Virus record (IMG/VR): IMGVR_UViG_3300021959_000024
Reading direction: 5' to 3' (one strand)
DNA length: 64,000 nt
Source of the DNA: an uncultured virus (IMG/VR IMGVR_UViG_3300021959_000024)
Taxonomy: Duplodnaviria; Heunggongvirae; Uroviricota; Caudoviricetes
In this document: one piece after another, positions 23,781-56,718 of the stretch
How positions within the stretch are numbered: position 1 is the stretch's first letter
How the letters are laid out: every line of letters begins with the position of its first letter
The notes under the pieces: model-generated
The model's database searches: none
Seen by the model: only the letters and a program-made list of their open reading frames with translations
Told to the model about the DNA's origin: nothing
Position numbers and translations under genes: made by a program

Positions 23781-25109
23781 ATGGAATACATGTACGAACA
23801 ACTCCAACAGAAATGGCAACCAATTATTGAGCATGCTGACCTTCCAGAAATCCAGGATAGTCACAAGAAATCAGTAACTGCTGTCTGTTTGGAAAACACA
23901 GAGAAGTCTCTAAGAGAGAATGCAGGATTCGCTCCTAATTCTTTACTTGCTGAGGCTCCCGCAAACGCTACTGGTTCTAGTATTGATAACTACGATCCAG
24001 TATTAATTAGCTTAGTTAGAAGAGCTATGCCTAACTTAGTCGCTTATGACTTAGTTGGTGTTCAGCCTATGACAGGACCTACAGGTCTTATCTTTGCTAT
24101 GAGAAGCAGATATACTTCTCAGTCAGGCTCAGAGTCTTTCTACAACGAAGCTGATACTTCATTCTCAACCCAAACTGCTGGTAACACAACATTGGGTGAG
24201 GCAAACTCTAGCAACCAAGGTACTGAGCCTTCAGGTAACTCTGCTACTTACAACTTTGCAAGTGGTATGGAAACAACTGAAGCTGAAGCACTTGGTGATG
24301 GCGGTGGAACAAACTTCGCAGAGATGGCATTCAGCATCGAGAAGATTTCTGTCACAGCTAAATCTAGAGCTCTTAAAGCAGAATACTCAATGGAACTTGC
24401 TCAAGACTTGAAAGCTATTCATGGTCTTGACGCTGAGACAGAACTTGCTAACATTCTTTCTACAGAAATCTTAGCTGAGATCAATAGAGAAATCGTAAGA
24501 ACAGTTAACCTTGTTGCTGTACCTGGTGCACAACAAAACGTTTCTTCCGGTGGTACTTTTGACTTAGACGTTGATTCTAACGGTAGATGGATGGTTGAGA
24601 AGTTCAAAGGTCTTATGTTCCAAATCGAGAGAGAAGCTAATGAGATTGCAAGAGGAACAAGAAGAGGAAAAGGTAACATCATGTTATGTTCTTCTGACGT
24701 TGCTTCTGCACTTCAAATGGCTGGTGTATTAGATTACACTCCTGCTTTGAACAGCAACAACTTACAAGTTGATGATACAGGTTCTACATTCGCTGGTGTA
24801 TTAAACGGCAGAATTAGAGTCTACATTGACCCTTACTTTGCACCTTCTTCAGGTGTACACTACATGACTGTAGGTTATAAAGGTTCATCAGCATTTGATG
24901 CTGGTCTGTTCTATTGCCCATACGTTCCACTACAAATGGTGAGAGCGGTTGGTGAGGACACATTCCAACCAAAAATTGGATTCAAGACAAGGTACGGCGT
25001 TGTCGAGAACCCATTTGCGAGAGGAACTGATGCCCTTGCTTCTAACGGTGCATTATCACAAAACCTTAACAAGTACTACAGAAGAGTGTTGGTCAACAAC
25101 ATCATGTAA
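23781..25109 (+). CDS. gp23: Major capsid protein gp23
   Basis: KWQPII, DPVLISLVRRAMPNL, GVQPMTGPTGLIFAMR, ELAQDLKAIHGLDAE, FQPKIGFKTRYG. Confidence 0.98.
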   Translation: MEYMYEQLQQKWQPIIEHADLPEIQDSHKKSVTAVCLENTEKSLRENAGFAPNSLLAEAPANATGSSIDNYDPVLISLVRRAMPNLVAYDLVGVQPMTGPTGLIFAMRSRYTSQSGSESFYNEADTSFSTQTAGNTTLGEANSSNQGTEPSGNSATYNFASGMETTEAEALGDGGGTNFAEMAFSIEKISVTAKSRALKAEYSMELAQDLKAIHGLDAETELANILSTEILAEINREIVRTVNLVAVPGAQQNVSSGGTFDLDVDSNGRWMVEKFKGLMFQIEREANEIARGTRRGKGNIMLCSSDVASALQMAGVLDYTPALNSNNLQVDDTGSTFAGVLNGRIRVYIDPYFAPSSGVHYMTVGYKGSSAFDAGLFYCPYVPLQMVRAVGEDTFQPKIGFKTRYGVVENPFARGTDALASNGALSQNLNKYYRRVLVNNIM

Positions 25110-25130
25110 TACAAACCTTTTATGGTTTTT

Positions 25131-25157
25131 AGAGGGGCTTTTAGCCCCTCTTTTTTT
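25131..25157 (+). terminator. Rho-independent terminator after gp23
   Basis: AGAGGGGCT-ttt-AGCCCCTCT plus T run. Confidence 0.9.
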
Positions 25158-25162
25158 ATCTG

Positions 25163-25191
25163 TTGATTTTATATAAATAATATTGTATAGT
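25163..25191 (+). promoter_or_regulatory. Sigma70-type promoter TTGATT-N17-TATAGT overlapping a late promoter (TATAAATA 25172-25179)
   Basis: 17-bp spacing; predicted start about 25198, at the 5' end of the first aptamer. Confidence 0.65.
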
Positions 25192-25198
25192 AATATAC

Positions 25199-25248
25199 AT
25201 CGTTCATCTCTAACGAGACGGAAGTAGTCAATAGTGACGAAGGAACGC
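25199..25248 (+). ncRNA. Glutamine riboswitch aptamer (glnA RNA motif), copy 1
   Basis: P1 CGTTC/GAACG, P2 TCTC/GAGA, core CGGAAGTA, P3 GTCA/TGAC, GAAG, 3' GAACGC: glnA three-way-junction consensus. Confidence 0.85.
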
Positions 25249-25255
25249 ATTGTTA

Positions 25256-25303
25256 CGTTCATCTAGTAATAGACGGAAGTAGGCAATGGTGCTGAAGGAA
25301 CGC
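25256..25303 (+). ncRNA. Glutamine riboswitch aptamer (glnA RNA motif), copy 2
   Basis: Same invariant core; P2 TCTA/TAGA and P3 GGCA/TGCT show compensatory changes relative to copy 1. Confidence 0.85.
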
Positions 25304-25324
25304 AATCTTCTATAGGAGATTGAC

Positions 25325-25489
25325 ATGACTAAATATCAAATTGCTCGTTTCAAACGTGCAGTCAAAAGGGATCTTACTAAGGAAATATTAAGCCCTAAAG
25401 CTAAGAATCATAGAATAGCTAAATCTTCTGGTCCAAGAGACGAGGAAAGATTTTTGCCTGAATATGCGACTAATAATCCTTGGTACTAA
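25325..25489 (+). CDS. 54-aa basic small protein under the tandem riboswitch (not in ORF track)
   Basis: AGGAG RBS 25314-18; MTKYQIARFKRAVKRDLTKEILSPKAKNHRIAKSSGPRDEERFLPEYATNNPWY; terminator directly after the stop. Confidence 0.75.
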   Translation: MTKYQIARFKRAVKRDLTKEILSPKAKNHRIAKSSGPRDEERFLPEYATNNPWY

Positions 25490-25492
25490 TAG

Positions 25493-25514
25493 AAGGGGCC
25501 ATTGGCCCCTTTTT
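25493..25514 (+). terminator. Rho-independent terminator
   Basis: AAGGGGCC-att-GGCCCCTT plus Ts. Confidence 0.85.
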
Positions 25515-25558
25515 ACTCGTTGACTTTAAACCGCTATAGAGGTAATATAAATACTGTT

Positions 25559-26080
25559 ATGACTGGAACTGAACCTACAACAACAAACTTTCTATCTCCT
25601 CTAGGACATAGATTTTTCATTAAGAAGATCCCGACAGTGAACTTCTTTGTACAGAATGTCGCTATTCCTTCCATAACAATGGGCGAAACACCGGTCCCTA
25701 CACCTTTCACTAAAATACAGTTGCCTGGTGATCAAGCAACATATGGCGATCTAGTAATCACATTTAGAGTTGATGAAAACTTAGATAACTATATGGAACT
25801 GTATAATTGGATGAGAGCAATATTAAGGGTCGATGATTTTACAGAATCTACTGCATGGGTGAACGAGGCTAATAACCCAATGTCTGATGATCGAGTGTTT
25901 AGTGACGCAACATTGACTATATTGAATAGCGCAATGAATCCTAACAAAGAAGTTACATTTACGGACTGCTTTCCTACTTCTCTATCAGATATTCCGTTCT
26001 CTACGCAGCTAGCTGATGTAGATTATGTTGAATGTACAGCTACATTCAAATACAGAAAATTTGAAATAGAGAATATATAA
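25559..26080 (+). CDS. gp3: Tail completion protein (gp3-like, tube fold)
   Basis: NFLSP.G.RF.I.K.P.V.FF.Q...PGD...YGDL.I.F.VDENL.NY.E...W; late promoter 25546-53. Confidence 0.8.
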   Translation: MTGTEPTTTNFLSPLGHRFFIKKIPTVNFFVQNVAIPSITMGETPVPTPFTKIQLPGDQATYGDLVITFRVDENLDNYMELYNWMRAILRVDDFTESTAWVNEANNPMSDDRVFSDATLTILNSAMNPNKEVTFTDCFPTSLSDIPFSTQLADVDYVECTATFKYRKFEIENI

Positions 26081-26578: not shown

Positions 26579-26978
26579 GGACGCTCCAGTAGATAGAACT
26601 GAATTAGGCGATGAGGCCATTAAGATACCTCAACTCCACAGCAAATACTTTAAGATTTATTCGACTGAGAGATTGATTCTCAAGAAGATGGAACTTGAAA
26701 GCAAACAAATGTGGAAAGACTTGTGGAGCTATTACCAAGGTCACATGGACTATGAGGATCTAACAGAACGAGGTTGGGATCAAATTAACACTATTATCCT
26801 AAAAGCAGACCTCAACATTCACATTGATTCTAACAAGGATTGGATCAACAACAATCTTAAGTTAGCTTATCAAAGAGAGAAGGTAGACTTCTTAGAGGCA
26901 ATTATTAAATCACTCAACAATAGAGGATTCAATATCAATGCCGCAATATCATGGGAAAAATTTAAGGTAGGAATTTAA
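26544..26978 (+). CDS. uvsY: Recombination mediator UvsY
   Basis: IQELWSKD..VD..EL..EA.KIPQLHSKY...RGFNI..AI.W.KF. Confidence 0.9.
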   Translation: MTLEQIQELWSKDAPVDRTELGDEAIKIPQLHSKYFKIYSTERLILKKMELESKQMWKDLWSYYQGHMDYEDLTERGWDQINTIILKADLNIHIDSNKDWINNNLKLAYQREKVDFLEAIIKSLNNRGFNINAAISWEKFKVGI

Positions 26979-27640
26979 TGAACGTAAGGTTAGTAAGCTG
27001 GTCTCAAACGCCAGTTGAAGAGCAAGACCTATCTGCACTTGATCTGGTTGCTTTCTGTGCAAGAGTAAGTAACCCTGAGAACCAGATGAATACACAGACT
27101 AGTGAAAGGCTAGTCAAATACTTAATTAAACATCAGCATTGGTCTCCTTTGGAGATGGTCAGTGCATGTATAGAAGTAGAAACGACACGTGACATTGCAC
27201 GTCAGTTTCTTAGACATAGATCATTCTCATTCCAGGAGTTCAGTCAACGATATGCTGATCCAACAATGGACTTGGAGTTTACGACTCGTGAGGCTAGGAT
27301 GCAAGATCCAAAGAACAGACAGAACAGTATCAAATCAGACAATGATGGTCTACATATCGAATGGCACAGACGACAGAGGAAAGTCATTGAAGCAGCAAGC
27401 AATGCTTATGAGTGGGCTATCAATAATGGTATTGCAAAGGAACAAGCAAGAGCAGTACTACCAGAAGGCAACACAATGAGTCGTCTTTATGTCAATGGAA
27501 CTTTGAGATCATGGATCCATTACATTCAATTACGAAGTGCTAATGGCACTCAGCTAGAGCATATGCAACTAGCGCAAGAGTGTGCAAAAGCTATTTCTAA
27601 AATATTCCCTATTGATGAATATGGAAACATTAATAGTTAG
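26978..27640 (+). CDS. thyX: Flavin-dependent thymidylate synthase
   Basis: HWSPLE, RHRSFSFQEFSQRY, KEQARAVLP, TQLEH. Confidence 0.95.
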   Translation: MNVRLVSWSQTPVEEQDLSALDLVAFCARVSNPENQMNTQTSERLVKYLIKHQHWSPLEMVSACIEVETTRDIARQFLRHRSFSFQEFSQRYADPTMDLEFTTREARMQDPKNRQNSIKSDNDGLHIEWHRRQRKVIEAASNAYEWAINNGIAKEQARAVLPEGNTMSRLYVNGTLRSWIHYIQLRSANGTQLEHMQLAQECAKAISKIFPIDEYGNINS

Positions 27641-29078: not shown

Positions 29079-29473
29079 CAATAGCGTGTATCAAATTAAT
29101 TAGCGGTGAAGAATTGATAGCTGAAGTACAACAAGGATCCAATCCCTTAGATATCATTGTTCATAATCCTGTCGTAGTTCACAAACAACAGACAGCAATG
29201 GGTCCAATGATGACAGTATCACATTGGCTAATGTTCACAAAAGAGAACAAAGCCACTATTAATCGCAAGAACATCGTTGCCTTAGAAGTTGATTTAGAGG
29301 AGAATGCTATACAACACTACATGAAGTTTATCAATAACAAAGGGGAATTGAACCACTTGGATAACCAAGAAAAGTTAGATGAGCTTTTACATAAACTAGA
29401 TGAGTTAACAGGAGAAAATGTAATAGAAACTGATAATATGAATGAGCCAGAATCTAATACTACAATACACTAA
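29075..29473 (+). CDS. Conserved hypothetical protein (Sm-like N-terminus)
   Basis: IKLISGEELIAEV; usual position before gp55. Confidence 0.65.
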   Translation: MTIACIKLISGEELIAEVQQGSNPLDIIVHNPVVVHKQQTAMGPMMTVSHWLMFTKENKATINRKNIVALEVDLEENAIQHYMKFINNKGELNHLDNQEKLDELLHKLDELTGENVIETDNMNEPESNTTIH

Positions 29474-30042
29474 TGCCTAAGAAAAGATCCGAACATTACG
29501 TAGACAACAAAAAACTATATGCAGAGATGGTAGACTATCTGAATGCAGTAAAAGAAGCAGATGAGTCTGGCGACGACAAGCCAAGAATTCCAGAGTACAT
29601 TGGGGAGTGCTTGCTTAAGATTTCAACCCGTCTATCAACAAAACCTAACTTCATTAACTACACGTACCGTGATGAAATGATAAGCGACGGTATTGAAAAT
29701 TGCATAAACTACATACAAAACTTTAAACCAGATAAGTCGGACAATCCTTTTGCATACTTCACACAGATAATTTATTATGCTTTTTTAAGAAGAATTCAAA
29801 GAGAGAAAAAGCAGCTGTATATTAAACACAAGACATTAGAAAGAAGTCTAGTGTTAGATGAATTAGCATCACATAGTGATGCTGGGGCGCAGGGTGATCA
29901 AGGAGCATATGTTAATCTAGAAACTCCTTACATGGTTGACTTTGTAGAAAACTTTGAACGAAAAGAAGAAGAAAAGAAACAGGCTAGGAAGAAGAAGAAA
30001 GGCCTCGAGAATTTTGTAGATGACGAAACAACTGATAAATAA
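29473..30042 (+). CDS. gp55: Late-transcription sigma factor gp55
   Basis: HYVDNK, PNFINYTYRDEMISDGIENC, NPFAYFTQIIYYAFLRRIQREKKQ. Confidence 0.95.
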   Translation: MPKKRSEHYVDNKKLYAEMVDYLNAVKEADESGDDKPRIPEYIGECLLKISTRLSTKPNFINYTYRDEMISDGIENCINYIQNFKPDKSDNPFAYFTQIIYYAFLRRIQREKKQLYIKHKTLERSLVLDELASHSDAGAQGDQGAYVNLETPYMVDFVENFERKEEEKKQARKKKKGLENFVDDETTDK

Positions 30043-31141: not shown

Positions 31142-32857
31142 ATGATCATATTTGAAAAGGTTCGATGGAAGAATTTTCTATCGTATGGAAATAGTTGGTG
31201 TGAGTTAGACCTCAATAAACATAAAGATACATTAATCATTGGAGAGAACGGAGCTGGTAAGTCTACGTTCTTAGATGCATTGTCATATGCATTGTACATG
31301 AAGCCGTTTAGAAAAGTTAACAATCCTCAACTTGTTAATTCAATTAATAAGAAGCACCTAAAGGTAGAAGTTGAATTTAAGGTTGGAGGTAATCACTATA
31401 AAGTAGTGAGAGGCCACGCACCAAGACTATTTGAGGTCTATCAGAACGGCGATCTACTAAACCAAGATGCCCATACAAAAGACTATCAGAAAGTACTAGA
31501 ACAAAGTATCCTAAAAATGAGCTACAAATCATTTACACAGATTGTAGTTTTAGGTAGTAGAAACTTCGTCCCTTTCATGCAATTGTCTGGAGCTGATAGA
31601 AGAACAGTGATTGAAGATTTACTTGACATTCAAATCTTTAGTACCATGGCTTCTTTGTTAAAAGACAAGCTAGCAGACAATAGATCACAGCTACAACAGG
31701 TAGATTATGATGTGAATCTGTTAGAAGAAAAAATTACAATTCAAAATCAATATCTTGAAGATATTGCTAAAGATAAGAAACAACAGCTAAATAAGATCAA
31801 GCTACAGATTAAAGAAAAACAAGATAAGGTATCTGAGTTACAATCAGAACTAGCTCTTGTTGAAGGTCATGCAAAAGAGTTGTTAGAGCAGTGTGCACCG
31901 TTAGAGTCTGTTTCTCAACGTGTGCAACAATTGATTGCACTTGAAGGACAAATTGAGTCCAAGATTACTAAACTGAAAAGGCAATTAAAGTTCTATGAAG
32001 ACAACAGCGACTGTCCGACGTGCGGACAAGAAATTGATGACGAGTTCAAAAGACAAGTCACAGATGAGACTGACTCCTCTATCACGGAGACAGAAACAGG
32101 TCTTACGCAACTTGAGACACAAATCCAAACTCAGTCCGCTAGAATATCAGATCTTAAGAGAATACAGGATGAGGCTACGGAAGCAGAAAGAAATGCAGGC
32201 CGTCTTAAAGCAGAAATCTCATCCATCAATTCGGTTATTGAGGGTATGGAGAAGGAAGTTGAAGAGAGCACTTCGGAGAACAACAATTCAGACCATGCAG
32301 CTACTAAGGTTCAAGAACTCACGGACGAGTTAGAAATAACTCAAAAGAGAAAAGTTGCACTAAGACAACAACAGACTGTTTTTAATACTGCTCAAGTGTT
32401 ATTGAAAGACACAGGTATTAAATCAAAAATTATTAAACAATATGTTCCTGTGATGAACAAGCTAATTAACAAATACTTAGCTGCTATGGAATTCTTTGTT
32501 GACTTCCATTTGGATGAAGACTTCAAAGAAACAATTAGGTCACGTCATAGAGACGATTTTGCATACGCATCATTCTCTGAAGGAGAAAAGATGAGGATTG
32601 ACCTATCGTTATTGTTTACATGGAGAGCCATTGCTAAGTTAAAGAACAGTGCATCTACTAATATACTGATCATGGATGAGATTTTTGATAGCAGTCTCGA
32701 TGCATCAGGTACAGATGAGTTCTTAAAAATCATAAAAGAGTTGACTTCAGATACAAGTATCGTTATAATATCTCACAAGACAGACCAACTTCTCGATAAG
32801 TTTTCTAATGTAGTTAGATTCGAGAAGCATAAGAACTTCTCAAGGATTGCAGAATGA
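31142..32857 (+). CDS. gp46: Recombination ATPase gp46 (Rad50-like)
   Basis: KNFLSYGN, GENGAGKS, CPTC hook, FSEGEK, DEIFD, ISH. Confidence 0.95.
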   Translation: MIIFEKVRWKNFLSYGNSWCELDLNKHKDTLIIGENGAGKSTFLDALSYALYMKPFRKVNNPQLVNSINKKHLKVEVEFKVGGNHYKVVRGHAPRLFEVYQNGDLLNQDAHTKDYQKVLEQSILKMSYKSFTQIVVLGSRNFVPFMQLSGADRRTVIEDLLDIQIFSTMASLLKDKLADNRSQLQQVDYDVNLLEEKITIQNQYLEDIAKDKKQQLNKIKLQIKEKQDKVSELQSELALVEGHAKELLEQCAPLESVSQRVQQLIALEGQIESKITKLKRQLKFYEDNSDCPTCGQEIDDEFKRQVTDETDSSITETETGLTQLETQIQTQSARISDLKRIQDEATEAERNAGRLKAEISSINSVIEGMEKEVEESTSENNNSDHAATKVQELTDELEITQKRKVALRQQQTVFNTAQVLLKDTGIKSKIIKQYVPVMNKLINKYLAAMEFFVDFHLDEDFKETIRSRHRDDFAYASFSEGEKMRIDLSLLFTWRAIAKLKNSASTNILIMDEIFDSSLDASGTDEFLKIIKELTSDTSIVIISHKTDQLLDKFSNVVRFEKHKNFSRIAE

Positions 32858-33408
32858 CAGATAAAGAATTTAAGAAAAAGTATAATCTAGTTGAATCATC
32901 ACATTCATTGCTGAGAACTAAACTAGAGAAGTTTGATTTCAACAATCCGCCTGTAGATCCAGTAGAGCTTGGAACAGATATGTTAGCTCATATGAGATAC
33001 TATGGAGGGATAGGTTTATCAGCTAATCAATTAGGATTACCATATCGTGTATTCGTAATGGAAGGAGAGCCTGGTTTTGTTTGTTTCAATCCAGCGATTA
33101 CTGCTTCTGCTGGTGAAGATATTTTGTTAGATGAAGGTTGTCTAACATTCCCTGGTTTCTATCTCAAGAAGAGAAGACCAGAAATGATAAGAGTTAGATT
33201 TATGGATCCATATGGCAACCCTTGTGTAAAGAAATTTAATGGTATGAGCGCTAGATGTTTTCAGCATGAGTTAGAACATCTTGAGGGTGGCAACTTTATG
33301 GAAGGCGTTAGCGATCTTGTACTACAAAGAGCTAAAGATAAACAAAGGAAACTTTTACGTCAATTGAGAAAGCGTACCAGGGACCTTAAGAAGGTAAAAA
33401 ATAAATGA
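32854..33408 (+). CDS. def: Peptide deformylase
   Basis: GIGLSANQ, EGCLT, QHELEHL motifs. Confidence 0.92.
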   Translation: MTDKEFKKKYNLVESSHSLLRTKLEKFDFNNPPVDPVELGTDMLAHMRYYGGIGLSANQLGLPYRVFVMEGEPGFVCFNPAITASAGEDILLDEGCLTFPGFYLKKRRPEMIRVRFMDPYGNPCVKKFNGMSARCFQHELEHLEGGNFMEGVSDLVLQRAKDKQRKLLRQLRKRTRDLKKVKNK

Positions 33409-34343
33409 GACCAATAGCATATTCAGAAATATTTCATTCGATTCAAGGAGAGGGATACTATACCGGTGTGCCTAGTACATGGTTGAGGTTCTTCTTATGC
33501 AATCTACAATGCGATGGGTTTGGTCAAGATGACCCGACTAATCCAGATACATATGACCTACCATACCAATCAATTGAAGTAAAAGATATCACTAAGATAG
33601 AAGACTTGCCTGTATGGGAGAAGGGCTGTGACTCATCATACTCGTGGTCTAAGAAGTTTAAACACTTACAGCATAAACATACAGCAAGAGAGATTGGTGC
33701 CTTATTAACAGATGCTAATAAGAACGAGTATAATCCTGAAGGCATGTGGACACATCCGGTGTCAGGACAGACGACTCACTTATGTATTACTGGTGGCGAA
33801 CCATTAATGAAGCATGCACAGAAAGCCTTTGTTGAGATATGGGGCGAGAAGTTTAGAGGTAATTTAGTAGGATGGAAGCCAATGGATGTAACATGGGAAA
33901 CTAATGGTACACAAGAGCTTACAGATGACTTCTTTAACTATGTAGGCAATCCTGGTGTATTCACACCTCGTCCATTTATATCCTGCTCACCTAAACTATT
34001 TACAGTATCAGGTGAAGATCCAAAGAGAGCTATCAAACCAGACTTTGTAGCTAAGTACAATGACATGGTGAGAAGAAACAATAGGACACATACAGACATT
34101 CCACATGGACAGCTCAAGTTTGTACTAGGACCTAAGAAAGAACAATGGGAAGAATTAGATGATGTTATTAGCCAGTTTAGAGCAGCTGGCGTGGACTGGC
34201 CGGTGTGGATAATGCCTGTAGGTGCAACACTTGAAGGACAAGCATTGTGCGATGGTGATGTAGCTAAGATGGCACAGAGCCGAGGATACAATGTATCTGC
34301 TAGGGTTCACACATACCTTTATGGTAATGAGATAGGAGTATAA
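33405..34343 (+). CDS. queE: 7-carboxy-7-deazaguanine synthase (radical SAM)
   Basis: SEIFHSIQGEG..TG.P, CNLQC...CDS, ITGGEPL, ETNG, SPKL, R.H. Confidence 0.9.
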   Translation: MRPIAYSEIFHSIQGEGYYTGVPSTWLRFFLCNLQCDGFGQDDPTNPDTYDLPYQSIEVKDITKIEDLPVWEKGCDSSYSWSKKFKHLQHKHTAREIGALLTDANKNEYNPEGMWTHPVSGQTTHLCITGGEPLMKHAQKAFVEIWGEKFRGNLVGWKPMDVTWETNGTQELTDDFFNYVGNPGVFTPRPFISCSPKLFTVSGEDPKRAIKPDFVAKYNDMVRRNNRTHTDIPHGQLKFVLGPKKEQWEELDDVISQFRAAGVDWPVWIMPVGATLEGQALCDGDVAKMAQSRGYNVSARVHTYLYGNEIGV

Positions 34344-34344
34344 A

Positions 34345-34929
34345 ATGTTTTCACCACTTATATTAATGGGCAAGTATGTAACAAAATTAGATGGTATTGA
34401 TAACGATGCTATCAACGAGGTAGTCTTAGCAAGAAAAGATATGAAGCTAGATGATGCTATCGGTAATACGTTTCAAGAAGATAGCTTCTTTCCTACAGAC
34501 AATCCTGCTTGCAAGACTTTGCTTGAAAAAGTAGATAAAGTAATTAAGAATAACGTTAACTCTTATTTTAAAACACAGCAACAATGGGCACATATATTAT
34601 TTCCAAATGAATCAACAATGTATCATTCACATGCCAACCCAAGTAATCCACCTGGTGTCTCTTGGGTATACTATAGTAAAACAAGTCCTAAATGTGGAAA
34701 TATTGTGTGGACTTTTGATGTGTGTTGTAAGAAAGTAATGATGGAGGAGCAGCCCGAAGTAGGAACACTGATTATATTTCCTGACTTCGTCCCTCACTTT
34801 ACTAAGAAAAATGTTAGTGGTGATGTTAGAATATCTATCAGTGGAAATGCAATACCACCTGAAAGCGATTGGCCTCAAGCTGCAAAGGATCCGCAAAATG
34901 TTTTCAGTTATATAGGAGTTACAGAATAA
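34345..34929 (+). CDS. 2OG-Fe(II) oxygenase-like protein
   Basis: HSH, SWVYY, G.LIIFP..VPH, RISISGN. Confidence 0.75.
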   Translation: MFSPLILMGKYVTKLDGIDNDAINEVVLARKDMKLDDAIGNTFQEDSFFPTDNPACKTLLEKVDKVIKNNVNSYFKTQQQWAHILFPNESTMYHSHANPSNPPGVSWVYYSKTSPKCGNIVWTFDVCCKKVMMEEQPEVGTLIIFPDFVPHFTKKNVSGDVRISISGNAIPPESDWPQAAKDPQNVFSYIGVTE

Positions 34930-34936
34930 TAAGATC

Positions 34937-35143
34937 ATGCCAGTGAAGTTTGGAAAATCAGCAAGAAAGTTTATAAAAGGTAGAGGAAAGACGTTTGAAT
35001 TTACCCATAACTATATTAAACAGAAAACAGTGGACGAGCTGTTTGAAACAATAAACAAGACAGGGATAAACAAAAAGTTAAGAGTCAAGTGTATTCGTGA
35101 ACTTGATCGAAGAAAAGTAAATTATGTTTGGAGCAAAAAGTAA
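34937..35143 (+). CDS. Small basic hypothetical protein
   Basis: AGGAG upstream; 68 aa, Lys-rich. Confidence 0.6.
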   Translation: MPVKFGKSARKFIKGRGKTFEFTHNYIKQKTVDELFETINKTGINKKLRVKCIRELDRRKVNYVWSKK

Positions 35144-35613
35144 TGAAGAAGAGATTTTTGAGTGGCAAAACTTATACACACAGCACTGGCCACAGCTGTG
35201 CATTTAGACAATGGAGAGCAGATAGTCATTGTAATCTAATACATGGTTATGCTCTTCAATTTGAACTTATATTTGGATCAAAAGATTTAGATGAAAAGAA
35301 TTGGGTAGTAGACTTTGGTGGTCTAAAAGAACTAAAAGAATGGTTAAAGCATATGTTTGATCATACTTACTTAGTTGCTAAAGATGATCCAGAGATGGAT
35401 ACTGTTTTACTTTTGGAAGACAGAAACCTTATTGATATGCGATTAGTTGATGCTGTTGGTTGTGAGAGATTTGCAGAGTTGACTTTTGATAAAGCATCTA
35501 GTATAATAGCAGACAAGTATGGAGATAGATGTTGGGTTGAAAGTGTTACAGTTAGAGAACACGAGTCTAACTCCGCAACATGTATCAATATGGAGAAACC
35601 AATAAATGCCTAA
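35143..35613 (+). CDS. queD: 6-carboxytetrahydropterin synthase
   Basis: HC.LIHGY, WVVDFG.LK, FDH, GCE, V.EH..NSA. Confidence 0.88.
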   Translation: MKKRFLSGKTYTHSTGHSCAFRQWRADSHCNLIHGYALQFELIFGSKDLDEKNWVVDFGGLKELKEWLKHMFDHTYLVAKDDPEMDTVLLLEDRNLIDMRLVDAVGCERFAELTFDKASSIIADKYGDRCWVESVTVREHESNSATCINMEKPINA

Positions 35614-36529
35614 TATAGATTATTCAAAGAAAATGCCAGATACGATCTTCACGTATGATGAAGACTTTTACACTGACGATTTACCAGATCCTCAAATTGA
35701 TCCAGTCTTACCTGGAGCGAGAGTGCCTCTTAAGAAAGTTGGTATTGCGCCTGTAGATTTACCTGTAAGATTGAGAAGTCGTAGTGGTGGCGAAGATAAA
35801 CTTCTCCAAGCAGAAGCTAGTCTATATTGTTCTTTGGATGATCCAATGGCTAAAGGTCTTAACCTATCAAGACTATATCTCATTATGCATGAGAAGATCA
35901 AAGATCAACTATCATTAGATGGTATGGAAGCAGCTATCAAAGAGCTAGCCGAAAAGCAAGGATCTAAGAATGCATATTGTAAACTTAGATTTAAATATCC
36001 TATGTACCAAGAAGCACTTAGATCAAAAGGGCTTAAAGGACATATTGCATACAAGACAGAATTAGAGGGTCAATATCGTGATGGAGATTATAGATGGTTT
36101 CTTACTATTGATTATGTGTATTCTAGTACTTGTCCTTGTTCTTTCGAGTTGGCGCACGACGCGCGCACGAAGAGACAAGCGGCTGCTAACGCACATAGTC
36201 AAAGATCAATTCTCAAAGTTAAAGTAGCATTCAATAGAAGCAACGATAATATTGTTTGGATTGAAGATTTAGTTGATCTGTGTAGAGAGTATATTCCTAC
36301 AGAAGTACAGATTGTTGTTAAGAGAAGAGACGAGCAAGCGTTTGCAGAATTAAATGGTGCTAACTTATTGTTCTCAGAAGATGCTGTTAGAATTGTACAC
36401 GAAGCATTGGACGGTTGGGTTGACAAAGGTAAGATTGATGACTTTAGTGTTGTTGCATCTCATGAAGAGTCATTGCATCCTTGGAATGCTATTGCTGTAT
36501 CAGTTGGAGGATATGGAATACTATCATGA
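35606..36529 (+). CDS. folE2: GTP cyclohydrolase IB
   Basis: KVGI..V.LP, KGLNLSR, STCPCS, AHSQRS, VKR.DEQ, FSEDAVR, ESLH. Confidence 0.92.
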   Translation: MPNIDYSKKMPDTIFTYDEDFYTDDLPDPQIDPVLPGARVPLKKVGIAPVDLPVRLRSRSGGEDKLLQAEASLYCSLDDPMAKGLNLSRLYLIMHEKIKDQLSLDGMEAAIKELAEKQGSKNAYCKLRFKYPMYQEALRSKGLKGHIAYKTELEGQYRDGDYRWFLTIDYVYSSTCPCSFELAHDARTKRQAAANAHSQRSILKVKVAFNRSNDNIVWIEDLVDLCREYIPTEVQIVVKRRDEQAFAELNGANLLFSEDAVRIVHEALDGWVDKGKIDDFSVVASHEESLHPWNAIAVSVGGYGILS

Positions 36530-46160: not shown

Positions 46161-46604
46161 ATGCTAAAATGGCTTAACGGTGACGTTAGCGATAAAGGTA
46201 AAATAGGCATTACGTTTGGCTGTATGGATCTGCTACATGCTGGTCATGTAGCAATGTTAGCTGAAGCAAAACAAGTATGCGATTATCTTATCGTCGGATT
46301 ACAGAATGATCCCTCAGTCGATAGACCTGAGAAAAATAAACCTATACAATCTATCTTTGAACGGCAGTTACAAATTACAGCATGTAGATTTGTTGACGAA
46401 GTCGTTGTTTATAATACAGAAGCTGATGTTCTTGACATACTAAAAACGTTACCTATTGATGTTAGAATCATAGGCAGCGATTATGTCGATAAAGATTTTA
46501 CTGGAAAGGACTACTGCGTTGACAACAATGTTGATATTGTGTATAATAGCAGAGATCATTCATTCAGTACAAGCAGCTTAAGGGATAGAGTTAAAAATTC
46601 ATGA
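46161..46604 (+). CDS. Cytidylyltransferase (TagD/glycerol-3-phosphate CT-like)
   Basis: TFG..DLLHAGH, LIVGL, VDEV, GSDY, R.H.FSTS.LR. Confidence 0.88.
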   Translation: MLKWLNGDVSDKGKIGITFGCMDLLHAGHVAMLAEAKQVCDYLIVGLQNDPSVDRPEKNKPIQSIFERQLQITACRFVDEVVVYNTEADVLDILKTLPIDVRIIGSDYVDKDFTGKDYCVDNNVDIVYNSRDHSFSTSSLRDRVKNS

Positions 46605-53768: not shown

Positions 53769-55123
53769 TTGAGAAACAGATACTAGCAGGACTTATTAAT
53801 GACGAACAATATACTCGTCAAGTTCTTCCGTTCTTAAAAGAACATTATTTTGGTCAAATAGATCAAAAGCTAGTATTCAAGATTATTACTCAATACTTTG
53901 AGAAGTACAATGCACTACCTAAGAGAGAAGCACTCTCAATTGAGATAGAACAAGTAGCAGGGGTAGATGATAAAACTATACAAAGTGCATTACAGACTGT
54001 TAATGAATTACCTACGACGGATGTCGATGAATGGCTAGTTGATCAAACAGAGACTTTTTGTCAAGATAAAGCAATCTACAATGCAATCATGTCTGGCATT
54101 GAGATCATAGAAAAGACCCCTGATAATAAAGGACAACTTCCTGGGTTATTGCAAGAAGCATTGCAAGTGAGTTTTGATAACAGCATTGGTCACGATTTTA
54201 TTGATGACGCTGATAGACGATATGAGTTCTATCATCAAGAAGAAACTAGAGTTCCTTTTGACCTAGATATGATGAACAAAATTACTAAAGGTGGATTACC
54301 AACAAAAACGCTTAATATTATCCTAGCAGGTACTGGCGTAGGTAAGTCATTGTTCATGTGCCATTGTGCAGCAGCTAACATTACAGAAGGCAAGAATGTA
54401 TTATACATTACAATGGAGATGGCAGAAGAAAGAATTGCTGAAAGAATTGACGCTAATTTATTAGACGTAACTATGGAAGACCTCAATGTGTTACCTAAGT
54501 CAGCCTACGATAAGAAAATGGCAAGACTAAAAGAAAGGTGTACAGGTAAATTAGTAATTAAAGAATACCCAACAGCAAGTGCAAATGCTAATCACTTTAG
54601 ACATCTAATTCAAGAACTAAGAACAAAAAAGAACTTTAAACCAGATGTAATATATATTGACTACCTCAACATATGTGCATCGTTTAGAATTAGAGGAGGC
54701 GCAAATGCAGGATCGTATGCCATTGTCAAAGCGATTGCAGAAGAATTACGAGGACTGGCTGTGGAATGCAACGTGCCAATCATCAGTGCGACACAAACCA
54801 ATAGACAAGGGTTCTCAAGCTCTGATATTGGTTTGGAAGATACGTCGGAGTCTTTCGGTCTACCGGCAACAGCTGACTTCATGGTGGCACTCTCGCAAAC
54901 AGAAGAACTCGAACGATTAAACCAATACATGATCAAGCAGCTTAAGAATAGATTTGCTGATCCAGCTTTTCATAGAAAGTTTGTTGTTGGCGTAGATAAG
55001 TCTCGTATGAGAATTTATGATGTAGAGCAGAGTGCTCAGAAAGAAATTATTGATGATACGCCTTTATTTGATAGAAGCGAGTCGTCAAAGAACTTAAAAA
55101 ACATATTTGACGATTTTAAATGA
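53765..55123 (+). CDS. gp41: Replicative DNA helicase gp41
   Basis: AGTGVGKS, EMAEE.I..RIDAN, IDYLNIC, ATQT.R, TSESFGLP.TAD, KQLKNR. Confidence 0.96.
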   Translation: MIEKQILAGLINDEQYTRQVLPFLKEHYFGQIDQKLVFKIITQYFEKYNALPKREALSIEIEQVAGVDDKTIQSALQTVNELPTTDVDEWLVDQTETFCQDKAIYNAIMSGIEIIEKTPDNKGQLPGLLQEALQVSFDNSIGHDFIDDADRRYEFYHQEETRVPFDLDMMNKITKGGLPTKTLNIILAGTGVGKSLFMCHCAAANITEGKNVLYITMEMAEERIAERIDANLLDVTMEDLNVLPKSAYDKKMARLKERCTGKLVIKEYPTASANANHFRHLIQELRTKKNFKPDVIYIDYLNICASFRIRGGANAGSYAIVKAIAEELRGLAVECNVPIISATQTNRQGFSSSDIGLEDTSESFGLPATADFMVALSQTEELERLNQYMIKQLKNRFADPAFHRKFVVGVDKSRMRIYDVEQSAQKEIIDDTPLFDRSESSKNLKNIFDDFK

Positions 55124-56718
55124 ACATATTAACAACATACCTAGGACACGAATCTAACATAGTAACTTACATAGATGGTAAGATTACTATCTTTGAGCTA
55201 GATAAACTTGTAGGTGAAAAATGGACAAAAGTAGCTACTAAACCTGTAGTAGAAATTTGTAATATATTTGAACAGGTGTTTGATATTATTGGCACTAATT
55301 CATTTGATCTTTGGGTTAATGGATCCATCGGTGATGAAGGTGCAGGTAATGGAGACGTATGGGCTACTAAATTCAAAAAAATCATTGATTACAAGAGACA
55401 TATTAACGGCCCTGGACACCACTTATGTCACGGTTACAGTTCTTTTTATCAATCTCCGTTTGAAAAAGCATTTATTATCTCTAGTGACGGTGGAGGTAAT
55501 GATGGCGTATTTAATATGTACAGAGCAGATAGACAAAATGGCCTTCAATTATTTCAGCGAATAGATAGGTTTGATCTTGGAACAATCTATGGTCTGTTAG
55601 GATGTTCAAGTAAAGAGATTACTGATACTACTGGACATTATTTAGATGTAGCAGGTAAAGCAATGGCATTGGCCAGCGTAGGTCATGATCGTAGTAGAGA
55701 TGTAAAGTTAAGAAATTTTATTCAAGACATATACACCGGACAGACGTTTGGTCATTTTAATGAATATGTTGGTTTAAAAAAAGGGACGCACAACGTTAAT
55801 GTTGCTGTAGGCAATCATGTAAAAGCTAAATTCCAGTCTTTAGAAGATAACAGTTTATCAAGACAAATCTGTGAAATAAATCAGACGCAACTTGAAAATA
55901 AGTTTTATTCAATAGTCAATGACAGATCGTATGAAATATTTTCTCGATACGATGGTAATCTAGTTCTTACTGGCGGTGTTGCAATGAACGTCGTGAACAA
56001 TCAAAAACTAAGAGATAAGCAAGGTGTTGATTTATTCGTTCCATGTAATCCTAGTGATAGAGGTCTTGCGTTAGGACTATTGTATTGGTATCTACATTTG
56101 ACTGGCATGGAAATTCCTAGAGGTTCACAACACTATGCAGGACCTCCATTGATAGGTGATGGTCCTATTGATCCATCTAAAAGAAAGACATCAATCAAAA
56201 CAATTGCAAACATGCTTAAAAAAGGTGCTATCCTTGGAGTAGCAGAAGGCAATGGTGAAATAGGAATGAGAGCTTTAGGTAGACGATCAATCATTTGTGA
56301 TCCAAGCATTCCTGGAATGAAAGACAAAATCAATGCTGAGGTCAAAGGAAGAGAATGGTTTAGACCATTTGCACCGATAATATTAGAAGAACACTTAGAT
56401 GGATTCCAGTCATCCTCATTTGATAACTTAGAATATATGGCTTATGCTGTTCCAGTAACAGATGAGTTTGCTGAGAAGTATCCTGCTGTATGTCATGTGG
56501 ACAATACAGCCAGAGTTCAATTGTGCAATGATGAAAATAGCACAGTATACAAAATTATGAAAGAATTAGGAACACCATTGCTAAACACCTCTTTCAATAT
56601 TCAAGGGCAACCTATAATTGCTCGAGAATCAGAGGCATTTGATATGTTAAACAGTGGCGTCTTAGACGGCATTGTCGTGAATGGTGTCCTATATAAAAAA
56701 CCCAAAAGTGATAAATAA
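55120..56718 (+). CDS. Carbamoyltransferase (NodU/CmcH family)
   Basis: HH.CH, DGGG, GK.MALA, GGVAMN, D.G.A.G, G.RALG.RSI, K.RE.FRPFAP, HVD.TAR.Q, LNTSFN. Confidence 0.9.
   Translation: MNILTTYLGHESNIVTYIDGKITIFELDKLVGEKWTKVATKPVVEICNIFEQVFDIIGTNSFDLWVNGSIGDEGAGNGDVWATKFKKIIDYKRHINGPGHHLCHGYSSFYQSPFEKAFIISSDGGGNDGVFNMYRADRQNGLQLFQRIDRFDLGTIYGLLGCSSKEITDTTGHYLDVAGKAMALASVGHDRSRDVKLRNFIQDIYTGQTFGHFNEYVGLKKGTHNVNVAVGNHVKAKFQSLEDNSLSRQICEINQTQLENKFYSIVNDRSYEIFSRYDGNLVLTGGVAMNVVNNQKLRDKQGVDLFVPCNPSDRGLALGLLYWYLHLTGMEIPRGSQHYAGPPLIGDGPIDPSKRKTSIKTIANMLKKGAILGVAEGNGEIGMRALGRRSIICDPSIPGMKDKINAEVKGREWFRPFAPIILEEHLDGFQSSSFDNLEYMAYAVPVTDEFAEKYPAVCHVDNTARVQLCNDENSTVYKIMKELGTPLLNTSFNIQGQPIIARESEAFDMLNSGVLDGIVVNGVLYKKPKSDK

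Follow-up and report, generated by a model that had tools for sequence, protein, structure and literature searches.

Why would a virus place two glutamine-sensing RNAs ahead of a gene for a 54-residue protein, in the midst of its structural genes? The question is raised by positions 25163-25514 of a 64,000-nucleotide stretch of DNA (hereafter the window) from an uncultured member of the Caudoviricetes (IMG/VR record IMGVR_UViG_3300021959_000024). An initial annotation of this region had described a self-contained unit made up of a promoter, a tandem glutamine riboswitch, a small unannotated open reading frame (ORF) and a terminator. On balance, we favour the explanation that the unit is a stand-alone late cassette, in which a glutamine-dependent ON switch gates the 54-residue protein. 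Given that two glutamine-sensing RNAs stand ahead of a conserved basic protein, the phage probably reads the nitrogen state of its host directly in deciding whether to make that protein.

Two glutamine-I aptamers precede a conserved small gene

A covariance search with the Rfam glutamine-I (glnA) model RF01739, for which the gathering score is 35, identified two complete aptamers side by side, with the ORF on their 3′ side:

25199..25251, + strand: glutamine-I (glnA) aptamer 1 (RF01739, 60.4 bits, E 7.4e-11, model positions 1-53 of 53)
25254..25306, + strand: glutamine-I (glnA) aptamer 2, adjoining the expression platform (RF01739, 55.6 bits, E 1.5e-09, model positions 1-53 of 53)
25325..25489, + strand: ORF of the 54-residue basic protein (7 Lys, 6 Arg), assigned by its homologues and by purifying selection

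This pair constitutes the sole Rfam matches in the window. The tandem glnA element proposed in the initial annotation is thus confirmed at scores of 60.4 and 55.6 bits against the required 35; the two repeats that it saw are present, but each is 53 nucleotides long by the model rather than about 48. The stems covary between the two copies as it had described, P2 reading UCUC/GAGA in one and UCUA/UAGA in the other, and P3 reading GUC/GAC and GGC/GCU, and this covariation extends to related loci. The 57 Rfam matches in the window and 27 loci (the near-identical L002, L004, L005, L007 and L010 were omitted) reduce to 30 distinct aptamers, which were aligned by reference and scored on the Rfam structure. 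Standard pairs fill 95.1% of cells, and two-sided changes affect six pairs (P2, four; P3, two). At 0.370, the covariation score exceeds the 0.156 of shuffles, and none of 500 shuffles reached it; sliding the 3′ partners by 1–3 columns lowers pairing to 25–51% (maximum 51.4%). The core nucleotides are invariant in 30/30 aptamers. P1 and the joining strands, the conserved core of the RF01739 family, are also invariant and therefore say nothing about structure, either way. The identity and the covariation of the aptamers are observed; we infer that each would bind glutamine and that the two might act cooperatively. A further possible pairing, CAUUG/CAAUG, would join the tail of aptamer 1 to the P3 loop of aptamer 2 in the window; other loci do not keep it, and we read it as chance.

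The ORF, labelled a hypothetical protein in some sources, is a real coding gene, as three observations indicate. A word-indexed search returned 18 homologous clusters of 51–67 residues, to which an exhaustive profile search added six small relatives and one unrelated long repeat protein. The frame is intact, with its stop right after the final Tyr, in the window and in 28/28 loci checked. The ratio of non-synonymous to synonymous change (pN/pS) is 0.148, with a mean pS of 0.48 and pN of 0.071 (16 distinct sequences, ungapped first 20 and last 11 codons), and variable columns by codon position number 12, 5 and 24, of 31. The 54-codon frame with its 13 basic residues is as first described, and it is conserved in relatives. 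Variation in the middle is by whole codons, and the two ends hardly change: MTKYQIARFKRAVKRDLTKE at the N-terminus and, at the C-terminus, LPxYxxNNPWY (NPFYP in a sister branch).

Aptamers and ORF are also conserved together. Loci of the peptide's relatives came from IMG/VR (10) and from metagenome contigs (23), some contigs being present in both collections. By Rfam, two full aptamers lie directly 5′ of the ORF in 10/10 of the former and 22/23 of the latter (32/33 in total), at a distance of 20–25 nucleotides in these 32, which supports the co-conservation that the annotation had proposed as a check. The exception, L015, has one Rfam match and a recognisable decayed copy mutated in P1 and P2. 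This decayed first aptamer (L015:195-250) falls below the Rfam cut-off, the second aptamer is kept and the ORF is intact, so that L015 is a natural single-aptamer variant.

Late-type signals and boundaries of the unit

The signals and genes that delimit the unit are the following:

23781-25109, + strand: major capsid protein (gp23), upstream neighbour
25131..25151, + strand: intrinsic terminator of gp23, which bounds the unit on its upstream side (terminator scan: nine-pair stem, six G-C, T run)
25163..25191, + strand: sigma-70-like TTGATT-N17-TATAGT (9/12 matches), probably not a functional or conserved promoter
25172..25179, + strand: T4-type late promoter motif TATAAATA, from the sequence and conserved in leaders
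25184..25199, + strand: 5′-terminal hairpin of six base pairs with loop GTAA, between the late motif and aptamer 1, read from the sequence
25491..25518, + strand: intrinsic terminator of the unit, a GC-rich hairpin (25491-25513) followed by a T run (minimum free energy −18.9 kcal/mol)
25546..25553, + strand: late motif of the next gene, downstream boundary (TATAAATA scan)
25559-26080, + strand: gp3/tail-tube-fold gene, downstream neighbour
29473-30042, + strand: gp55-type late sigma factor (homologue match, E 2.6e-62)

In T4, gp55 recognises the late motif TATAAATA. The late motif that had been reported to overlap the promoter is indeed found at 25172-25179, and a [T/G]ATAAATA sequence lies at most 45 nucleotides upstream of aptamer 1 in 34/34 leaders (19 distinct sequences). 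Together with the gp55 homologue in the window, this constancy marks the unit as one of the T4 late type. The window holds 13 copies of TATAAATA, 13/13 of them on the coding strand, against 7.1 expected (3/100 shuffles reach 13). The copies, at 2944, 5403, 5671, 9971, 19379, 20990, 22665, 25172, 25546, 44555, 49110, 58696 and 61324, stand in many cases just upstream of structural-gene ORFs, in short gaps, and provide a usable late-promoter map.

The sigma-70 promoter of the initial annotation fares differently. Its hexamers are present, but a region scan found three such sites against 2.0 expected in shuffles, and TTGATT-N17-TATAGT is absent from the leaders of divergent relatives; TATAGT, the proposed −10 box, falls within the conserved 5′ hairpin. 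We therefore reject this site as a conserved promoter: what the relatives keep is the late motif.

In most leaders the late motif begins 12–14 nucleotides before the aptamer match, so that a T4-like start would fall on the base preceding P1. The window and four further leader types have the motif 25–30 nucleotides upstream of the aptamer, and the extra bases form a hairpin. The hairpins of L009, L024, L018 and L017, at the same 5′ place, differ in sequence yet are self-complementary, and leaders with the late motif 12–13 nucleotides from the aptamer have none. This hairpin possibly serves to stabilize the 5′ end.

At the other end of the unit, the terminator scan missed the hairpin at 25491-25513, but its fold is clear (−18.9 kcal/mol). 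A hairpin follows the stop codon in all 23 distinct foldable downstream sequences, at −13.5 to −22.8 kcal/mol and with differing sequences. The two terminators named in the annotation, that of the unit (by its fold) and that of gp23 (by the scan), are thus both in place.

Twenty runs on record as RNA contain part of the stretch. We examined the contigs of four, and all four cover the unit: one contig spans 25198-25487 and the others 25152-25310, 25294-25361 and 24903-25301. Contigs of this kind show no ends, strand or level, and their support for transcription of the unit is weak because DNA carried over into RNA libraries cannot be excluded. No contig of these four runs extends beyond 25518, which carries no evidential weight.

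The cassette is not tied to one place in the genome. In the window it lies between the capsid gene and gp3; elsewhere it follows 2-oxoglutarate (2OG)-Fe(II)-oxygenase-like and ferredoxin-like genes (L007), follows the gene of an 899-residue structural protein (L009) or faces the convergent gene of a 767-residue structural protein (L024), so that at least three different gene neighbourhoods are represented. In phage Melnitz, whose structural genes stand in the same order as in the window, no cassette separates the capsid gene from its downstream neighbour. These varied neighbourhoods, and the absence of such an insert in Melnitz, bear out the claim that the unit is self-contained.

The same evidence bears on the idea that the ORF is a leader or incidental frame and that the aptamers control read-through into the tail gene. 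The gp3-like gene does come next after the unit, on one and the same strand. But the ORF has a pN/pS of 0.148 and two invariant termini, it is followed by a strong terminator, the tail gene has a late motif of its own, and the genes beyond the cassette in other phages are convergent or unrelated ones. Read-through control is already largely refuted on these grounds, and we consider it highly improbable.

Expression platform and direction of the switch

Between aptamer 2 and the start codon, the leader is predicted to form a hairpin that includes the Shine–Dalgarno (SD) sequence AGGAG, which is found, as annotated, at 25314-25318:

25303..25322, + strand: SD-sequestering hairpin, C25303-C25310 paired with G25315-G25322, loop 25311-25314 (minimum-free-energy fold, covariation)

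The hairpin opens with C25303, the invariant last C of aptamer 2. In 13 distinct sequences from 25 loci, 98% of its cells are paired, against at most 53% when the strands are slid, and three pairs show two-sided changes; most of these changes stem from one register shift common to four sequences and so represent few events. The terminal C of the aptamer and the bases after it thus pair with the ribosome-binding site, as in a gifB-type platform. In the gifB leader of Synechocystis, C68 and adjacent bases pair with the ribosome site, and synthesis of the gifB product, IF17, rises with glutamine, according to Klahn 2018 (PMC6212724). The equivalent C makes a long-range pair upon glutamine binding in the structure of Ren et al., as cited there.

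We propose that a gp55-type late RNA polymerase would start at about 25185, just after TATAAATA, and that the mRNA would carry, in order, the small 5′ hairpin, two glutamine-I aptamers 8 nucleotides apart, the SD hairpin, the ORF and the terminator. Pairing of the SD region with the terminal C of aptamer 2 and the seven bases that follow would keep the ribosome site closed by default. By analogy with gifB, glutamine binding would most likely open it, and synthesis of the 54-residue protein would fall late in infection, at a time of plentiful glutamine. A translational ON switch of this kind, in which glutamine opens the ribosome site, is in our view fairly probable.

In the reverse arrangement, glutamine would strengthen the SD hairpin and the protein would be made when nitrogen is scarce. 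As read from the sequence, a possible short P1 extension of aptamer 2 uses A25304-U25306, and its melting by glutamine would free bases to lengthen the SD hairpin. In marine Proteobacteria, glnA, amt and gltB/gltD also stand behind aptamers of the same class, and these genes would be expected to be repressed by glutamine. Against this, glutamine induces gifB, the only tested case with a like platform, in which pairing with the ribosome site likewise involves the terminal C and the next bases (PMC6212724). We hold such an OFF switch to be rather unlikely.

Several points nevertheless count against an ON switch. The SD hairpin appears in every predicted fold, native or not, so that secondary structure alone leaves a glutamine-driven opening unexplained. 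Given that genes before which an OFF switch is expected, glnA and amt, follow the same aptamer class in marine Proteobacteria, the aptamer itself does not fix the direction. An SD-pairing test over 66 viral leaders was negative (22/66, against 46% in shuffles); the test is crude, comparing only the SD core with the first 12 nucleotides, and its outcome limits the claim of SD sequestration to the family of the 54-residue protein. The persistent hairpin, the OFF logic of the proteobacterial genes and the negative test keep our confidence in the ON direction moderate.

A possible role for the tandem arrangement

The two aptamers represent one ligand class and serve one platform, only aptamer 2 adjoins the SD hairpin, and the tandem is kept at 32/33 loci. 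Their P1 strands are identical, and the P1 helices lie 8 nucleotides apart in the window and 6–9 across the leaders of the family. Because the strands are identical, a swap of partners is possible: over the 8-nucleotide linker, the 3′ P1 strand of aptamer 1 would join the 5′ strand of aptamer 2, and the two outer strands would join likewise. By nearest-neighbour energies, 25199-25324 comes to −24.5 kcal/mol as the native tandem, −28.3 as the swapped fold and −31.2 when unconstrained, and the swapped fold is the stabler of the first two in 17/17 distinct leaders, by 1.6–5.6 kcal/mol; these energies exclude tertiary contacts and ligand. Leaving the swapped fold would need both aptamers to form together, which would make the response switch-like. 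A cooperative response of the tandem, of the kind seen in glycine riboswitches, is thus an idea with a thermodynamic hint.

Glutamine aptamers and small ORFs in viruses and cells

An exact-core pattern scan of IMG/VR gave at least 120 viral stretches with such aptamers, and 80 loci with flanks were examined; the counts that follow, viral and cellular, are among the matches listed. An ATG-initiated ORF of at least 25 residues lies within 90 nucleotides of the last aptamer at 68 of the 80 loci, and most of the other 12 ended early or failed this simple rule. The ORFs fall into the following groups:

YRG-repeat ORFs: 11
ORFs of 28–38 residues with W-C-[FY]: 11
ORFs of about 63–65 residues with a G.GT[ST]G[YF] motif: 10
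KEKEQRK-type ORFs of about 32 residues: 9
MT[LM]W..YCR ORFs: 6
MTYRPF.WK ORFs: 4
ORFs ending in DPRLQ.I: 4
family of the 54-residue protein: 4
MYAQYRRRLEID ORFs: 2
other ORFs: 7

At least nine unrelated-looking families of small ORFs therefore stand behind viral glutamine aptamers. Tandem aptamers occur at 3/4 loci of the 54-residue family and 2/6 MT[LM]W loci; the other 58/58 ORF-bearing loci have single aptamers. Searched at E up to 0.1, 13/66 distinct viral ORFs match DUF4278, the domain of IF17, three of them above the Pfam cut-off; small DUF4278 (IF17-like) ORFs lie behind glutamine aptamers at L073, L101, L114 and ten further viral loci.

The cellular scan, with one genome per species, gave at least 122 stretches. 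In cyanobacteria, single aptamers precede YRG-type or IF7-like small ORFs, with the exception of one locus that has two copies about 270 nucleotides apart. In marine Alphaproteobacteria, mostly tandem aptamers precede amt or glnA, and in SAR86-type genomes aptamers precede type-II glutamine synthetase (GS), gltB/gltD or a receptor. The tandems before ammonium transporter and glutamine synthetase genes include L159, L164, L171, L190, L191, L203, L204, L206 and others, from alphaproteobacterial single-amplified and metagenome-assembled genomes (MAGs). They are seen in SAR11-like, SAR116 and Rhodobacterales genomes, and one contig has two tandem pairs 2 kb apart. Four gammaproteobacterial MAGs have one tandem pair each, before a small ORF. 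A YRG-repeat ORF lies behind a tandem pair in L221, from a Porticoccaceae MAG. This gammaproteobacterial ORF and the viral DUF4278-like ORFs suggest that proteins resembling GS-inactivating factors may exist outside cyanobacteria.

A first peptide pattern scan of 185,579 species genomes found no homologue of the 54-residue protein, and a distant one was later found by way of the riboswitch. This protein (L198, 53 residues), the product of one of the small ORFs behind the tandem pairs of the four MAGs, matches the opening 34 residues of the phage family with an hhalign probability of 89.9%, and its neighbours are cellular: a major facilitator superfamily transporter, a xanthine/uracil permease, a TonB receptor and a phosphoribosyltransferase. 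The 53-residue relative was found in 4/81 sampled genomes of a family of streamlined marine Gammaproteobacteria with genomes of about 1.2 Mb, once 229 kb into a contig. In L278 (G004:C21), from a gammaproteobacterial MAG of that size, the tandem riboswitch and the 53-residue ORF, whose first 34 residues resemble the phage peptide, occupy 2384-2680 on the minus strand. A search of the four MAGs found PII in 4/4 and GlnE in 0/4, the genomes being incomplete and the absence of GlnE therefore not shown; two of them carry a type-II GS of 326–331 residues.

The protein and its possible target

Hydrophilic and basic, the 54-residue protein contains no membrane segment. AlphaFold2, run with 28 sequences, gives a mean predicted local distance difference test (pLDDT) value of 73, with a confident helix at residues 3-22 (blocks 93 and 89) and an uncertain remainder. 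Resemblances to other proteins were few. PHROGs yields one weak match of unannotated function (phrog_5489, E 0.019), and a Protein Atlas search with the protein gave no usable match. Among phage isolates, tblastn of the peptide gave only a chance match (Serratia tape-measure gene, E 0.1) and blastn of the unit gave none. The C-terminus (25457-25486, residues 45-54) resembles an N-terminal IPRYIRNQPWY of SLU7 in a PDB profile search, which at E 0.82 is probably chance. Kinship to the 28–38-residue W-C-[FY] ORFs is weak (hhalign 19% over 16 columns), and we set both of these candidates aside.

On the analogy of IF7 and IF17, we suggest tentatively, and with some doubt, that the target may be a host nitrogen-assimilation enzyme or regulator; the protein would be an analogue of these factors and not a homologue. 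We count in favour of such a target that in cyanobacteria the RF01739 aptamer precedes GS-inactivating factors, that 13/66 of the viral small ORFs behind it are DUF4278-like, and that the cellular relative of the peptide stands behind a tandem riboswitch in Gammaproteobacteria with GlnE found in 0/4 genomes. A complex predicted from the peptide family and the type-II GS of MAG G004, the latter in two copies, scored 0.29 against a mark of 0.32; it gives no verdict and is evidence neither way.

Other results weigh against this suggestion. The protein has no meaningful match among Pfam, NCBIfam (28 members searched) or PDB profiles. It is not a relative of DUF4278: PF14105 matches 0/28 members at E up to 10, and hhalign against 11 viral DUF4278-like ORFs gives 0.1%. 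The parallel with gifB drawn in the initial annotation thus stands for the architecture, a small basic protein behind the aptamer, and falls for the protein family. At least nine families of ORFs behind viral aptamers are, moreover, hard to reconcile with a single shared target.

The diversity of these families can also be read in favour of a different function, an end-of-infection timing device for lysis or late development, unconnected with nitrogen regulation and made while glutamine signals remaining building blocks. The unit is driven by a late motif within the structural module, and the authors of the Melnitz study speculated on a link between a phage glutamine riboswitch and lysis timing (PMC9004378). 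Yet profile searches of Pfam, NCBIfam and PHROGs linked the protein to no holin, antiholin or regulator of lysis, its hydrophilic and basic chain lacks a membrane segment, and its cellular relative sits in chromosomes outside any phage context. We consider a timing device quite unlikely.

With Lys or Arg at 13 of 54 residues, a basic N-terminal helix and a late gene beside capsid genes, the protein might instead bind nucleic acid or the ribosome, or neutralize charge inside the virion, glutamine then coupling its supply to amino-acid availability. Such a role fits poorly with the strictly conserved aromatic C-terminus LPxYxxNNPWY, which looks like a specific docking motif for another protein; a cellular relative exists, and the cassette of other phages shows no linkage to capsid genes. 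We think it very unlikely.

Phage and host context

The window, in which every gene lies on the + strand, derives from a T4-like myovirus of marine or estuarine origin and encodes tail sheath, tail tube, portal, prohead protease, scaffold, gp3/tail-tube-fold, UvsY and ThyX proteins, as well as gp55, gp46/47, clamp, clamp loader and DNA polymerase. The auxiliary genes at 26978-27640, 32854-36529 and 55120-56718 encode ThyX, peptide deformylase, QueE-like and QueD-like enzymes, two 2OG-Fe(II) oxygenases, Hsp20 and a Nol-like carbamoyltransferase. Among the window ORFs scanned, none was a photosystem gene.

By capsid protein, the nearest isolates are Stenotrophomonas phage DLP_6 (71.9%), Melnitz (68.4%), S-SKS1 (67.2%) and Mosig (65.6%); by DNA polymerase, cyanomyoviruses are nearest, at about 50%. 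The nearest isolates, 64–72% identical in the capsid protein, infect varied hosts, and given this distance and variety cyanophage status is not supported. A search of two related viral fragments did not find psbA (PF00124), which is uninformative as each fragment is only 10–12% complete, and the capsid protein was not found in the four gammaproteobacterial MAGs. Marine picocyanobacteria use a type-2 aptamer, according to Klahn 2018 (PMC6212724). The type-1 tandem aptamers of the window and the gammaproteobacterial relative of the peptide lead us to suggest, with low confidence, that the host may be proteobacterial rather than cyanobacterial.

Comparison with known systems

The gifB (IF17) leader agrees with that of the window in its aptamer family, in the small basic protein that follows and in the pairing of the terminal C and following bases with the ribosome site. 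It differs in having one aptamer instead of two, a DUF4278 product instead of a non-DUF4278 one, and an NtcA-controlled promoter where the phage unit has a T4-type late motif. The tandem arrangement of glnA RNAs was noted by Weinberg 2010 (PMC2864571). Like the phage unit, the marine proteobacterial tandems place two glutamine-I aptamers before one gene, and we saw them in SAR11-like, SAR116, SAR86 and other genomes. They stand mostly before glnA, amt and gltB/gltD, with 60–95 nucleotides to the start codon, whereas the phage aptamers precede a micro-protein whose start lies within about 20 nucleotides. In Alphaproteobacteria 17–18 nucleotides separate the exact-core pattern matches; in the phage the P1 helices are 8 nucleotides apart.

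Glutamine riboswitches have been described in T4-like cyanophages, S-CREM1 and others (PMC9964418, PMC9602691), and in Melnitz, Mosig and pelagimyophage contigs, the one in Melnitz being read as controlling tmRNA (PMC9004378). The isolate phages thus share with the window RF01739 aptamers in T4-like marine phages; by tblastn, no isolate in the phage collection carries the 54-residue peptide. In Melnitz (MZ577097.1, ~46398-46564; L283:1501-1667), a single aptamer is followed on the same strand by an unannotated 32-residue ORF of the W-C-[FY] family, and the record annotates a minus-strand ORF at that site. Full-text searches of the literature yielded no description of a small protein behind a phage glutamine riboswitch; Table S7 of PMC9964418, on cyanophage aptamers, may list related loci. 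The riboswitch class and its presence in phages are already known. What is new is the late-gene cassette, its strictly tandem form, the 54-residue protein family and the cellular relative of that family.

Significance

A 2017 survey counted only two glutamine aptamers in phage genomes and stated that phages rarely use riboswitches (PMC5473149). Our exact-core scan gave at least 120 viral stretches, and nearly all of those examined precede a tiny basic ORF. In the most far-reaching interpretation, marine phages and streamlined marine Gammaproteobacteria would share a large repertoire of glutamine-gated micro-proteins (about nine families and 68 viral ORFs listed, DUF4278/IF17-like ones included) that regulate nitrogen assimilation post-translationally outside cyanobacteria. 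The 54-residue protein would be one of them, made late and only at high glutamine, in an all-or-none manner through the P1 strand swap. As a whole, we regard this interpretation as unlikely.

The target of the 54-residue protein would reveal which host process the phage must adjust to the nitrogen available. Small proteins may control GS in organisms other than cyanobacteria as well, as hinted by the cellular relatives, whose genomes yielded no GlnE. If these elements are functional, many marine phages would sense a central metabolite of the host directly, with no host protein as intermediary, and would answer it with micro-proteins that gene callers and annotators have mostly missed.

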